This document shows, piece by piece, positions 2,350 through 57,968 of a stretch of DNA of 64,000 bases. The stretch is taken from NCBI RefSeq assembly GCF_041248615.1, contig NZ_CP158426.1. One strand, given 5' to 3'. Position 1 is the first letter of the stretch. Each line of letters starts with the position of its first letter. Made by a program: the position numbers and the translations under genes. The stretch comes from Escherichia coli (GTDB taxonomy: Bacteria > Pseudomonadota > Gammaproteobacteria > Enterobacterales > Enterobacteriaceae). The notes under the pieces were generated by a model that made no database searches, had not been told where the DNA came from, and saw only the letters and a program-made list of their open reading frames with translations.

Positions 2350-4242
2350 TTAATTTGTCCCATCACTAAAGAATTTGATTGCGTCAGTTAGTACATAGTC
2401 AATGAAAAATTTTACGTGAAAGACCTGAAAAACGCTATTTTCTGAGTTTTTAATGAAATCTACAGCTATATCTTTTAGGTTGATCAACCAGTTATATTCT
2501 TCAATCAGTCTAGTTCTGGCATCCGCATCAGAATAACGACTCCGTAAGCTAAATGCCAGTTTCCTCATGATAACTGGATCAAGTTTCCTATAGCTTTCAA
2601 TGAAAACATCAGCAGGAACTAAGTGTAAAAAAGGTACATCATGAAGATTTAACTGTCTATTATTAGAATGACTCAATTCAGATAACAACGATAATTTTCC
2701 CCTTTGTAACTCATCTCTGAACTGCAATGCAAATTCCGAAATTGAATCATCAAACCGTTTCTTCCTTTCTATTTTAATATGTTCAATAATGAGCTTAAAG
2801 TCATCACTATCCCTGTCAAGAAAACCTAAACCACGCCATGCCCTTAATTCGTTATAATGTGTTTGCGCATATTCCTTATGTACATCTTCAGCTCTAAGTC
2901 TATTATAATAATTATTTATATTCTGTTTTGTCTCATTTATGAGATCATGAACATCATCTGTTGTTAGACCTTCTTTCGCCATTTCCAGCAAAATACTCGC
3001 TGTCATCAGAAGTTCACCTAAGGAAGTGATCTTACCTGAAAACAGGTTATCCTTAGCAATAGCGTACTGCTCATAAAGCATAGTTTCATTTAGTTCTCTA
3101 TAGTTCCACAAATACTCCCATGCTTGGGAATCGCTGCTTCTAAAAAATCGCGTAATATCCAACTGAGCAAGAAGATCACCCGTTACCTTTCCATCACAGA
3201 TTAGTTCTCTCCAAGACGCACCATCCAGTAACTTCTCGGTTAATACAGGAGACGAATATTTCTCGACAATCATGTCATACTTACTTTTGACACGTTCTTT
3301 ACCCAAAAACATACCATAATTAACATTGCCGATTGAATTGAAATCCTCGTAACTAAGATTCCCTCCCCGGTACTCCATCGAAAAAATTAACAATTGATGA
3401 AAAAACACCCTTATAAATTCATCGTTACTTACATATTTATCTCCCAAAAGGGAAATAATTCGTTGTACATCGAGAAAGAACTGCCTCAAGTGTCTTAGAT
3501 TATTATAATTCGCTGACACATAGAGGTCCTCTATTGTCTGCATATCTTCTTTAAATATATTAGCAACATGCAAACTACTAATTACGTTCAAAAAAATCTT
3601 ACAAGCACTATGTAAATCTGACGTTACTTCAAATGTTTTACCTACTAGCTTTTCTTTTGTTCTCATGTATTCATTGCGAGATTTCTCATCATCATTATTT
3701 ATTCGCTTTTCTCTATTGATTATTTCATCTTCATTGGCAACCAAGATCGCTTTGTATCCGTTTACCTCTACAAAGTGATTTATATATCCAAATAAGATTG
3801 GTAAATCTACACCAGCTCTCTCGACATCATCAAAGACCAGCACAAAACCATCTGGTTTTCTAGTAAAGTCGCTAAGATTAATGGTGGGAACATTGCTATT
3901 GACATCTACGTCAGATTTATTATCGCCATTAAGATCGATCTTGAAAGTAGCCTTAAGCGTATTTTTTAGTACATTTGCACCAAAGATAAGGGCTTTGTTT
4001 GATAGGACAGGATGCAGTTGACGATAGAACTCATCTTCAATCTGCTCAATAGAGTTGACGCCATACAAGCTCACTTTTAGAAATTTGAACTCTGAATGTT
4101 TCTGCCTATATTCTTCAAGAACTCGTTCAATGAACCAAGTTTTACCTGATCCCCAAGCACCTTTAAGCATAATGGCGTATTGAGGTTCAGTTTTAAGGCT
4201 AAGGTAATATTCTAGATAGTCTTTGATGTACGTATTGTGCAT
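2350..4242 (-). CDS. KAP-family P-loop NTPase (candidate anti-phage defence cargo in the tin/old-equivalent hotspot)
   Basis: Walker A GAWGSGKT in the KAP-type GxWGxGK[ST] context and Walker B-like hhhhDDVER (VLVFDDVER); about 630 aa. AT-rich. Start taken at the MHNTY Met (4242); the track ORF extends to 4293 with no RBS. Confidence 0.65.
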   Translation of the reverse strand: MHNTYIKDYLEYYLSLKTEPQYAIMLKGAWGSGKTWFIERVLEEYRQKHSEFKFLKVSLYGVNSIEQIEDEFYRQLHPVLSNKALIFGANVLKNTLKATFKIDLNGDNKSDVDVNSNVPTINLSDFTRKPDGFVLVFDDVERAGVDLPILFGYINHFVEVNGYKAILVANEDEIINREKRINNDDEKSRNEYMRTKEKLVGKTFEVTSDLHSACKIFLNVISSLHVANIFKEDMQTIEDLYVSANYNNLRHLRQFFLDVQRIISLLGDKYVSNDEFIRVFFHQLLIFSMEYRGGNLSYEDFNSIGNVNYGMFLGKERVKSKYDMIVEKYSSPVLTEKLLDGASWRELICDGKVTGDLLAQLDITRFFRSSDSQAWEYLWNYRELNETMLYEQYAIAKDNLFSGKITSLGELLMTASILLEMAKEGLTTDDVHDLINETKQNINNYYNRLRAEDVHKEYAQTHYNELRAWRGLGFLDRDSDDFKLIIEHIKIERKKRFDDSISEFALQFRDELQRGKLSLLSELSHSNNRQLNLHDVPFLHLVPADVFIESYRKLDPVIMRKLAFSLRSRYSDADARTRLIEEYNWLINLKDIAVDFIKNSENSVFQVFHVKFFIDYVLTDAIKFFSDGTN

Positions 4243-51610: not shown

Positions 51611-52729
51611 CTAGTTGGCTGGGAGTATAACCAACAAAACATATCCCACCAGCGCCGCCCACAACAGCATCGGTATTGAATAGAGATGGAAACGCCACCA
51701 GATACGGCGATCGTTCGCCATCCTTAACGCAATCAAATTTGCCAGCGATCCGGGTAATAAACCAAAGCCCCCCACGTTTACCGCCCATGCCAGCAGCAAC
51801 GACGGCGGCACATAGTTCAGCAACAATATGGTACTCGGCACGTTACTGATCACCTGCGATAAACCGATTGCCGTTAACCATAACCCGGGTTCGGATAAAT
51901 GACTCACGTTACTTAACACCCCCTGCAAAGCTGGCAGTTGGGTTAGTAAATGGACGTCGATAAACATCGCCATAAATACCAGCAGCAGCGTCCAGTCCAC
52001 ACTAAGCACCACGCGACGTGCCAGCAGCGCAAAGCCCACCGCCACAATCACCAGTCCCCACAGCTCTTGTTTTAACTCCAGCGCCATCAGAAAGACGATA
52101 TACAGCCCCAGACAACTCCACACCAGCCGCGGTTTCCACTCCGGCGTTTGCACCCCCGTATGGTATTGCAGCGCCTTTCCAGGGAAACAACACCAGCACA
52201 GGAGCAGGAGCGTCAGCATCATTGCGCCAGCCAGCGGTGCCATTTGGACAATAAATCCGGCAAACGAAAGACCAGAACGTCCCCAGATAAGAATATTTTG
52301 CGGGTTGCCAATTGGCGTCAGTAGCGAACCAGCGTTGACTGCCAGCGCCTCAAAAATAATCAGCCGATTAACCGGGATCTCACACAGTCTTTTTAGCGTG
52401 ATAGTCAGCGGAACAACTATAAACAGCGCGACATCGTTGGTCAGAAAGGTAGAAAGCAGCGCCGCCGCCAGCACCATAAACATCGCCAGCCGTCGCTCCG
52501 TAGCAAAGCGGCGCACCATTTTGCGCCCCAGCACATCAAAATAACCGCTTAACTCCACACCTTTGGTCAGCAGCATCAGGCCGCTTAAGGTGATGATGGT
52601 GTGCCAGTCGATAGCAGCAGGCCAGGATTTCGGTGCAAAGGGAACGAAAAAACTTAATCCGATGCCAACAAGAATTAATAACTGAAAAAAACGATCGCCT
52701 TGCAGCGTGCGTAAAAAAGGCAGGCTCAT
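51611..52729 (-). CDS. ybiR: Inner-membrane transporter YbiR (ArsB/NhaD-type permease)
   Basis: 372 aa polytopic protein; overlaps the mntR stop; synteny. Confidence 0.85.
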
Positions 52730-53193
52730 TTGGCACCGTGTTTCTGGGTAAACAAACGAAAGGCATCCAGCGTCTCTTCACTAACATGGTGCTCCATGCC
52801 TTCCGCGTCGCGACGGGCGATTTCCGGACTGACGCCCAACACCAACAAGAAATTTTCGACTATCTGATGTCGCTCGCGGCTTTCCTGCGCCAGTTTCTCT
52901 CCTTCTGCCGTTAAAAACACGCCACGCCAGGGGATCATTTCAATCAGCCCCATGGTTGCCAGCCGCTTAAGCATTTTCGCCACCGTCGGTTGCGAAACCC
53001 CCAGACGAGCAGCCATGTCTACCTGACGAGCTTCCCCCACTTCCCTGATCAAGTCAGAAATCAGCTCAACGTAATCATCAATAAGCTCGCGCCGATGCGC
53101 CTCTCTGACCTGGCGGAACCCTTCAACGTGCTCTTCCACGTTCACTAACTGAGTCACTTTTTTTGCTGTTGGCGTACCTGCGCGACGACTCAT
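52726..53193 (-). CDS. mntR: Manganese-responsive regulator MntR (DtxR family)
   Basis: 155 aa; synteny. Confidence 0.9.
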
Positions 53194-53284
53194 TGTGCTT
53201 CCTCATTATGGTGACGCATACATAGCGTTCTCATTTCGTGCGCACATTGTAAACCAGAGTTGCGAAGGTACAAAAAATTAACGT

Positions 53285-53320
53285 TTTAGCAATAGCTATA
53301 TAATATAGCCTGTGCTATAT
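53285..53320. promoter_or_regulatory. Putative MntR operators upstream of mntS (ATAGC/GCTAT-type palindromes)
   Basis: TAGCAATAGCTA (53287-53298) and ATAGCCTGTGCTAT (53305-53318) read directly; MntR repression of mntS is established knowledge. Confidence 0.45.
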
Positions 53321-53378
53321 CTGTATGTAATGCAATCATCCCTCAAGGATCGACGGGATTAGCAAGTCAGGAGGTCTT

Positions 53379-53507
53379 ATGAATGAGTTCAAGAGGTGTA
53401 TGCGCGTGTTTAGTCATTCTCCCTTTAAAGTACGGTTAATGCTGCTCTCTATGTTGTGCGATATGGTCAACAACAAACCGCAGCAAGATAAACCTTCCGA
53501 TAAATAG
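53379..53507 (+). CDS. mntS: Small protein MntS (42 aa; formerly the rybA locus)
   Basis: AGGAGG RBS then ATG; translation MNEFKRCMRVFSHSPFKVRLMLLSMLCDMVNNKPQQDKPSDK matches recalled MntS; below the ORF-track size cut-off. Confidence 0.85.
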   Translation: MNEFKRCMRVFSHSPFKVRLMLLSMLCDMVNNKPQQDKPSDK

Positions 53508-53778
53508 CGGCGTCGCGGTACGCCGCTTCACTCCTGCTTTTATGCAGGCACAACGCGTTTTGCCCTGAAAAACCCCACTTTTTGTCGGATTTGCAATCCC
53601 CTTCGCAAAAGATTTGTTCGTCAGTAGTTGACCTGAACGGCAGCTCGCTCTATCTTCTTGCAGCCCTGCGTATATTGCGGCTCGCGGATGCGGACCCCTT
53701 TCCCCTCTTCACGCACTCTTGCAGGTATTGACCCTTGACGCCAGGGTAAGCACATGGCGTTTGTTACGATAGTGGCAT

Positions 53779-55362
53779 ATGAATTTAACCCTCAAAGAAT
53801 CGCTTGTTACCCGTAGCCGGGTATTTAGCCCGTGGACTGCGTTCTACTTTTTACAGTCGCTATTAATTAACCTCGGCTTAGGTTACCCCTTCAGTTTGCT
53901 CTACACCGCCGCATTTACGGCTATTTTGCTTTTGCTATGGCGAACATTGCCTGGCGTACAAAAAGTTCTGGTCGGTATCAGTTCGCTGGTGGCGGCTTGT
54001 TATTTCCCTTTTGCTCAGGCCTACGGCGCGCCTAACTTCAATACATTGCTGGCATTGCACTCCACCAATATGGAAGAGTCGACCGAAATCCTGACGATTT
54101 TTCCGTGGTACAGCTACCTGGTCGGCTTATTTATTTTTGCGCTCGGCGTAATAGCAATCCGGCGAAAAAAAGAGAGTGAAAAAGCGCGCTGGAATACCTT
54201 CGATAGCCTGTGTCTGGTATTCAGTGTGGCGACATTTTTTGTTGCTCCCGTGCAAAACCTGGCCTGGGGCGGCGTATTTAAACTGAAAGATACTGGCTAT
54301 CCGGTATTTCGTTTTGCTAAGGATGTCATCGTCAATAATAACGAGGTGATTGAAGAGCAAGAACGGATGGCAAAACTTTCCGGAATGAAAGATACCTGGA
54401 CGGTCACTGCCGTTAAGCCGAAGTATCAGACCTATGTGGTGGTGATCGGTGAAAGCGCGCGTCGCGATGCCCTCGGTGCCTTTGGCGGTCACTGGGACAA
54501 TACCCCGTTTGCCAGCAGCGTTAACGGTTTGATATTTGCTGACTACATTGCCGCCAGTGGCTCCACGCAGAAATCGCTTGGCTTAACGCTCAATCGCGTA
54601 GTCGATGGCAAACCACAGTTTCAGGATAACTTTGTCACCCTGGCAAATCGCGCGGGCTTCCAGACCTGGTGGTTTTCCAACCAGGGCCAAATCGGCGAAT
54701 ACGATACCGCCATCGCCAGCATCGCCAAACGAGCAGATGAAGTGTACTTCCTGAAAGAAGGTAATTTTGAAGCAGATAAAAACACGAAAGACGAAGCGTT
54801 ACTGGATATGACCGCTCAAGTGCTGGCGCAAGAGCACTCGCAACCGCAGCTGATTGTTTTACATCTGATGGGCTCACATCCGCAGGCCTGCGACCGGACA
54901 CAAGGCAAATACGAAACCTTTGTGCAATCGAAAGAAACGTCGTGCTATCTCTATACCATGACGCAAACAGACGATTTACTGCGCAAGCTGTACGATCAGT
55001 TACGCAACAGCGGCAGCAGCTTCTCGCTGGTTTACTTTTCTGACCACGGTCTGGCCTTTAAAGAGCGTGGCAAAGACGTGCAATACCTTGCCCATGATGA
55101 TAAGTATCAGCAAAATTTCCAGGTGCCTTTTATGGTCATTTCGAGCGACGATAAAGCGCATCGGGTGATTAAAGCCCGCCGCTCTGCCAATGACTTCTTA
55201 GGCTTTTTCTCGCAGTGGACGGGAATTAAAGCGAAGGAAATTAACATCAAATACCCGTTTATATCTGAGAAGAAAGCCGGGCCGATATACATCACCAACT
55301 TCCAGTTACAGAAGGTGGATTACAACCATCTCGGAACCGATATTTTCGACCCGAAACCTTAA
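53779..55362 (+). CDS. ybiP: Putative phosphoethanolamine transferase YbiP (membrane sulfatase-family)
   Basis: 527 aa, N-terminal TM helices plus sulfatase-like domain; synteny. Confidence 0.85.
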   Translation: MNLTLKESLVTRSRVFSPWTAFYFLQSLLINLGLGYPFSLLYTAAFTAILLLLWRTLPGVQKVLVGISSLVAACYFPFAQAYGAPNFNTLLALHSTNMEESTEILTIFPWYSYLVGLFIFALGVIAIRRKKESEKARWNTFDSLCLVFSVATFFVAPVQNLAWGGVFKLKDTGYPVFRFAKDVIVNNNEVIEEQERMAKLSGMKDTWTVTAVKPKYQTYVVVIGESARRDALGAFGGHWDNTPFASSVNGLIFADYIAASGSTQKSLGLTLNRVVDGKPQFQDNFVTLANRAGFQTWWFSNQGQIGEYDTAIASIAKRADEVYFLKEGNFEADKNTKDEALLDMTAQVLAQEHSQPQLIVLHLMGSHPQACDRTQGKYETFVQSKETSCYLYTMTQTDDLLRKLYDQLRNSGSSFSLVYFSDHGLAFKERGKDVQYLAHDDKYQQNFQVPFMVISSDDKAHRVIKARRSANDFLGFFSQWTGIKAKEINIKYPFISEKKAGPIYITNFQLQKVDYNHLGTDIFDPKP

Positions 55363-55926: not shown

Positions 55927-56278
55927 AACCACCTCAAATGTGATTCAAATAAGTCCTAAGTTTTAAATATATCAAAAATTAATGGGAAACTCTTCGCGAT
56001 TTGTGATGTCTAACGGGCCATTTCATGTAACAGAACGTTTCCATACACCGCTATCCATCTAAATTTAAATCACTTTTTCAGAGAACTGCGTAAGTATTAC
56101 GCATGTTTTCCCTGTCATTCATCCAGATTATTCCTAATCACCAGACTAATGATTCCATCAATCCTGGCGCATTTTAGTCAAAACGGGGGAAAATTTTTTC
56201 AACAAATGCTCAACCAGCATTGGGTATATCCAGTACACTCCACGCTTTACTTAAGTCTAGATATTTGTGGGAGAAAGG

Positions 56279-57335: not shown

Positions 57336-57968
<633 letters not shown>

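Follow-up and report, generated by a model that had tools for sequence, protein, structure and literature searches.

The open reading frame at 53379..53507 of the window, i.e., the whole 64-kb stretch of DNA that was analysed, is the mntS (rybA) gene of Escherichia coli, lying behind its MntR-controlled promoter and unchanged with respect to K-12. The gene, its regulator, its operators and its mode of action, by which Mn export through MntP is inhibited when manganese is low, are already published. The value of this work for annotation is one of completeness, a real 42-codon gene and its operators being missed by ORF-length cut-offs, and the clean footprint of the mntS promoter/operator block in seven genera is a part of its small added value.

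Identity and Distribution of the Gene

The first-pass annotation had recognized mntS in a 42-codon ORF preceded by an AGGAGG ribosome-binding site, and both elements are indeed present (Table 1), in a stretch that it had delimited by the edge of MntR box 1 (53285) and the end of the stop codon (53507). Alignment with K-12 mntS, which it had proposed as a check, was run: protein comparison gave 42/42 residues identical to K-12 MntS (b4705, YP_009029995.1), once known as the ORF of RybA, and the NCBIfam equivalog NF033226 (small_MntS) scored 96 bits against a cut-off of 36 (E = 6e-28), covering residues 1-39 of the 42, by which the identification is borne out. No frameshift, premature stop or mismatch to MntS was found in the ORF. 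At the DNA level, MG1655 and the window showed zero differences from 53180 to ~53542, a segment comprising the mntR start, the intergenic region, the ORF and the hairpin described below, and the five substitutions that separate them all lie 3' of the ORF, beyond ~53542, in the 3' UTR.

The 42-aa ORF was listed only when the minimum length was set at 20 aa (min_aa=20), the default of the ORF lister being 60 aa, and a length cut-off is thus a plausible reason for the absence of mntS from the ORF track. A second annotated small gene below typical ORF-length cut-offs is present in the window: the yliM ORF (22 codons, 21 aa; 55979..56044, minus strand), intact and identical to that of K-12, lies between ompX and rhtA.

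The locus was found in 5421 of the 5426 complete E. coli genomes, and 5114 of these carry the 281-bp core (operators, ORF and hairpin) with an identity of 99% or more; PGAP labels the locus mntS in thousands of E. coli genomes of RefSeq. Beyond the species, a single protein search yielded 136 homologues of MntS in Enterobacteriaceae, almost all of them 41-43 aa long, and in an alignment of 12 homologues the residues M1, N2, E3, K5, R6, C7, H13, S14, P15, F16, C27, K33 and P34 were invariant. The features by which MntS proteins are recognized have been given as length, PF motif, helix layout and the lack of an AXA signal-peptidase motif (Wright et al., 2023). The peptide falls within the range of 40-45 aa, carries the PF motif as Pro15-Phe16, begins with a polar stretch that leads into a hydrophobic helix, and is devoid of an AXA motif; its gene is moreover divergent from its neighbour mntR (the MntS-MntR dyad), with 185 bp from mntR to the mntS ATG. 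A Pfam-A search of the 42-aa protein matched no family, despite the precomputed PF26599 (MntS) domain borne by homologues in databases, which looks like a difference between library versions and not like counter-evidence to the MntS identity. A sequence search of the PDB with MntS returned no solved structure.

Table 1. Features of the mntS locus in the window, with their conservation in the alignment of seven genera.
Feature	Position	Strand	Description	Invariant columns or positions, seven genera
mntR	52726..53193	-	Mn2+-sensing DtxR-family repressor, 155 aa; NCBIfam equivalog NF008273, 269 bits vs cut-off 153	
mntR-proximal intergenic DNA				28%
Conserved mntS promoter/operator block	53269..53332	+		52/64 (81%)
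MntR box 1	53284..53301	.	TTTTAGC-AATA-GCTATAT, imperfect 7-4-7 inverted repeat; covers part of the -10 and the bases directly before it	12/18
-10 hexamer, mntS/rybA promoter	53299..53304	+	TATAAT, read from sequence; across the box 1/box 2 junction	
MntR box 2	53303..53320	.	ATATAGC-CTGT-GCTATAT, perfect 7-4-7 inverted repeat; spans the transcription start	16/18
RybA/mntS transcript	53312..53651	+	340 nt, mapped from K-12 rybA b4416 (852725..853064, minus strand) by collinear alignment	
mntS 5' UTR				28%
Shine-Dalgarno sequence	53369-53374	+	AGGAGG, 4 nt before the ATG, read from sequence	
mntS CDS	53379..53507	+	ATG start, 42 aa MNEFKRCMRVFSHSPFKVRLMLLSMLCDMVNNKPQQDKPSDK, TAG stop	codon positions 1/2/3: 24/36, 33/36, 11/36
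Terminator-type hairpin	53506..53527	+	8-bp GC-rich stem AGCGGCGT/ACGCCGCT, 6-nt loop; overlaps the stop codon	
Second small hairpin, 3' UTR	53533..53548	+	CCUGC-UUUUAU-GCAGG; E. coli lineage, stretch not conserved in other genera	

MntR Boxes and Promoter

Two ATAGC/GCTAT-type palindromes had been reported upstream of the ORF, and both are there. Box 2 is exact; in box 1, the 10-base core ATAGC-N4-GCTAT contains a single mismatch, and two are counted when the 7-nt arms are taken in full. The boxes, of 18 bp each, are parted by a single A, so that their centres are 19 bp apart, and together they cover the -10 and the annotated 5' end of the RNA, which is consistent with repression. The scan for the MntR motif that had been suggested as a check was run as well: the 64-kb window contains two copies of the exact core ATAGCNNNNGCTAT, where shuffles predict 0.06, and two or more copies were seen in 0/100 shuffles. 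With one mismatch allowed, 3 copies were found in the window against 1.44 expected, a count that is not significant alone. The reading of the palindromes as MntR operators is supported, since their architecture is that of the mntH, mntP and dps sites and their footprint is seen in seven genera.

The TATAAT hexamer lies 7 nt upstream of the annotated 5' end of the RNA, and this position, 53312, falls in the spacer of box 2; the transcription start was taken from the K-12 RefSeq coordinates of rybA, mapped via alignment. No good -35 was seen at mntS, the best candidate being TTAACG at 53278-53283, which would leave a 15-bp spacer, and it is because a good -35 is absent that the promoter of mntS went uncalled in a consensus scan. 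Both the -10 and the hairpin were read manually, and this reading was backed by the cross-genus comparison.

Conservation Across Genera

Variation within E. coli was too low to inform, and six further genera were therefore compared instead, the DNA alignment thus comprising E. coli, Salmonella, Citrobacter, Klebsiella, Kosakonia, Kluyvera and Enterobacter. The synteny ybiR-mntR <-> mntS-opgE was kept in the contigs of all six. In the window, the product of the mntR gene carries the Pfam domains Fe_dep_repress and Fe_dep_repr_C, and mntR is also its label in K-12 and in RefSeq. The conserved promoter/operator block stands out clearly from its flanks, where 18/64 and 10/36 columns (~28%) were invariant. 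In the ORF, variation was concentrated at third codon positions (Table 1), from which it follows that mntS evolves as a protein-coding sequence; as read from the alignment, this pattern is the signature of selection on the MntS peptide. A Shine-Dalgarno core of the GGAGG type is present in all seven genera, and it is because this core is shifted by a few bases in the alignment, in Klebsiella and Kluyvera, that only 5 of the 13 columns at 53369-53381 were invariant.

Amid the variable intergenic DNA, the motif ATTGTA at 53246-53251 was invariant. Read on the minus strand as TACAAT, it is a candidate -10 of mntR, for which TTGTAC (53273-53268) may be the -35. Since the MntR boxes are situated upstream of this candidate -10, autoregulation of mntR is not obvious.

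The RybA Transcript and Its Terminator

The mntS ORF lies inside the RybA transcript annotated in K-12, a point that was absent from the first-pass annotation. Northern blots have revealed species of 205 to ~400 nt with a common 5' end (PMC4361602). The ORF is closed by a terminator-type hairpin, the stem of which is kept in all seven genera, and the segment 53500-53560 folds with -21.9 kcal/mol (z = -2.15). In E. coli, the tail that follows the hairpin, TCACTCCT, is a poor, degenerate T-tract, and the hairpin was not called there by the terminator scan. In Klebsiella and Kosakonia, with the tails CATTTTTCTG and TTCATTTTTC, it was called as an intrinsic terminator in both; the T-tract after the mntS hairpin in other genera was TTCATTTTT, as compared with TCACTCCT in E. 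coli. The poor T-tract of E. coli fits the published species of 205 to ~400 nt with a common 5' end. The lost T-tract, together with the extra hairpin in the 3' UTR, may explain the multiple long RybA species, and may also underlie read-through toward opgE.

No conserved RNA structure beyond the terminator hairpin was seen in RybA, either in the folds or in the seven-genus alignment, and the fold of the 5' UTR (z = +0.93) gave no support for a structured regulatory RNA. Further downstream, a promoter-like element, TTGACC-17-TATCTT, is found at 53628-53656, upstream of opgE, for which it probably serves as the promoter, and is kept in Klebsiella and Kosakonia; the 340-nt rybA annotation ends within it, at 53651.

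Proposed Mode of Action

From a mechanistic point of view, the arrangement of the locus suggests how mntS would respond to manganese. When manganese is high, Mn2+-loaded dimers of MntR, the product of the divergent gene next door, would occupy both abutting 18-bp operators; with the -10 and the start site thereby covered, RNA polymerase would be blocked and mntS kept off. We infer this steric occlusion as the natural mode of mntS repression, in agreement with the published repression of mntS transcription by MntR:Mn (PMC4361602; 10.1101/2023.06.02.543501; legend to Fig. 1 of PMC9806134). When manganese is low, MntR would leave the operators, the RybA/mntS RNA of ~200-400 nt would be made, and the strong Shine-Dalgarno sequence would drive translation of the 42-aa MntS, which would bind the Mn exporter MntP and inhibit efflux, so that scarce manganese stays in the cell. 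Binding to MntP and inhibition of its Mn export have been described (Wright et al., 2023, preprint 10.1101/2023.06.02.543501), an inhibition that had already been inferred genetically (Martin et al., 2015; PMC4361602). MntS was also described to self-associate as manganese rises, which may act as an off-switch (Wright et al., 2023, preprint 10.1101/2023.06.02.543501).

The gene identity, the operator architecture, the siting of both boxes on the core promoter and the conservation come from the present sequence, and MntR-dependent repression, MntP binding and the idea that MntS may be switched off by self-associating with manganese are taken from the literature; the mntP gene itself lies outside the 64-kb window.

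Alternative Interpretations

The label "manganese chaperone-like", which the first-pass annotation had attached to MntS, is outdated, as no chaperone activity was found by Martin et al. (2015; PMC4361602), and the functional label of mntS should read "MntP inhibitor" and not "chaperone". The original, 2011-era hypothesis, in which MntS is a manganese chaperone that passes Mn2+ to apo-enzymes, has been largely refuted and is now very improbable. It was explicitly considered, and MntS does aid the Mn activation of several enzymes when manganese is scarce (PMC4361602); potential ligands are found in Cys7, His13, Cys27 and Asp28, the first three being invariant in the 12 homologues, and Mn-dependent self-association leaves room for direct Mn binding; purified MntS was nevertheless of no help in metallating apo-MnSOD in vitro, a result that its authors did not consider definitive, and the title of Fig. 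9 in the same paper contains the words "not as a metal chaperone" (PMC4361602). Total cellular manganese is, besides, altered by MntS, MntS toxicity depends on MntP, and MntS binds MntP, all of which count against a chaperone. As regards the RNA, it is unlikely that the locus is mainly or additionally a base-pairing sRNA, RybA, with the ORF secondary (a dual-function RNA). The Mn phenotypes depend on the protein and are independent of Hfq (Martin et al., 2015; PMC4361602), the ORF is conserved in the manner of a protein, varying mostly at third positions, and in the seven genera the low invariance of the 5' UTR is accompanied by only 12% of invariant columns in the 3' UTR outside the hairpin. 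The fold of the full 340-nt RybA was no better than that of shuffles (z = -0.20), and an Rfam scan of 52500-54500 at E <= 1 returned no family. These observations have to be set against the K-12 RefSeq annotation, in which a 340-nt ncRNA, rybA, runs across the ORF, against the report that RybA affects genes of aromatic amino acids during peroxide stress (Gerstle et al., 2012, RNA Biol 9:458, as cited in PMC4361602), and against the statement of Martin et al. that their own data leave an sRNA role possible (PMC4361602); the degenerate T-tract of the E. coli terminator and the extra 3' sequence or structure, absent from other genera, point in the same direction. The sequence data gathered here are neutral with regard to the separate sRNA role claimed for RybA.

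The interpretation of the palindromes as incidental, AT-rich promoter sequence and not as MntR operators carries almost no weight. The region is indeed AT-rich, with several short self-complementary hexamers, and the count with one mismatch allowed lacks significance, but both exact cores of the window lie in promoters of genes reported to be regulated by MntR, and their number far exceeds the expected one. Furthermore, the same 7-4-7 design is found at mntH and mntP of K-12, the block is near-invariant in seven genera as the flanking intergenic DNA varies, and MntR sites are marked in PmntS in the legend to Fig. 1 of PMC9806134. The reading of mntS as a protein-coding gene, controlled by MntR through two operators and acting on MntP, is the one retained, as very probable.

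Prophages Between mntR and mntS

In ~30 of the 5426 complete E. coli genomes, a ~32-kb prophage of the P2 family is located between mntR and mntS. It was first seen as an E. coli genome match that covered the query in part, and its annotation shows an integrase, CI, CII, Ogr and a P2-type capsid. The site is occupied in NZ_OZ547246.1 (locus coordinates 7663/39460) and in NZ_CP046006.1, and comparison of the junctions revealed a shared core, GCT(A/T)TATAATATAGC, which corresponds to ~53295-53309, i.e., to the mntS -10 and the box 1/box 2 junction. The integrase-side junction was present in 30 of the 5426 genomes, including an unrelated swine isolate, and the cargo-side junction in one genome only. 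The integration keeps TATAAT and box 2 beside mntS, and replaces box 1 and the native upstream promoter DNA with phage DNA; in the window, the site 53295-53309 is unoccupied. A comparison of the integrase/attP arm with deposited phage genomes gave no close DNA match (11% coverage at 82% identity at best), and a search of the available literature found no paper describing prophage integration at this mntS/mntR site. We propose tentatively, as a possibility that is still rather doubtful, that the 15-bp box junction, GCTATATAATATAGC, is also a P2-family attachment site and that lysogeny could alter the Mn shut-off of mntS. In the genomes that carry the prophage, a small minority of E. coli, the operator junction of mntS is the place of integration.

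Comparison With Known Systems

The locus has the same promoter, operators, Shine-Dalgarno sequence and terminator hairpin as mntS of K-12, and the same neighbours, mntR, ybiR and opgE, in the same order; in MG1655 coordinates, it runs in the opposite orientation to the window. It is also collinear with the K-12 annotation of RybA (b4416).

MntS has been described as homologous to the signal peptides of a subset of SitA proteins, SitA being a component of the SitABCD Mn importer; these signal peptides are 40-45 residues long, and MntS has in common with them the PF motif and an arrangement of two helices with a kink (Wright et al., 2023). In SitA, a substrate-binding domain comes after the signal peptide, whereas the mntS ORF ends at 42 codons, has no AXA cleavage motif and is followed by no periplasmic binding domain. 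SitA itself, a periplasmic Mn-binding protein, was ruled out as the product of the ORF, which stops at codon 42 and is followed by opgE, of the sulfatase family. At most, MntS may be a relic of a SitA signal peptide, and not SitA.

Regarding the operators, the mntH and mntP regions of K-12 were scanned with the same ATAGC-N4-GCTAT core, and the mntS palindromes are, by their sequence, members of the mntH/mntP/dps family of sites. Upstream of dps (57465..57968, + strand), a perfect MntR-type box, ACATAGCCGGTGCTATAC, is found at 57400-57417, 48-65 nt before the start codon; it contains the second exact copy of the core (57402-57415, 50-63 nt upstream of the ATG). This position agrees with the reported repression of dps by MntR-Mn2+ (Yamamoto et al., 2011, as cited in PMC5553809). 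In K-12, a single perfect site, AAACATAGCCTTTGCTATGTTT, with the ATAGC-N4-GCTAT core seen at mntS, lies a short way upstream of mntH; this box (3724-3737 in the mntH upstream region) lies inside the small ORF ypeD (b4819; 3688-3777). Two sites are found upstream of mntP, TTTAGCCAAAGCTATG with one mismatch and ACATAGCTTAGGCTATAT, which is exact, the former having the same TTTAGC variant half-site as mntS box 1. The mntP sites are 40 bp apart and upstream of the gene, whereas only 1 bp parts the mntS boxes, which cover the -10 and the start of transcription. Unlike mntS, mntP is induced by MntR (10.1101/2023.06.02.543501), and the position of the mntS boxes on the -10 and the start site makes for an arrangement that fits repression.
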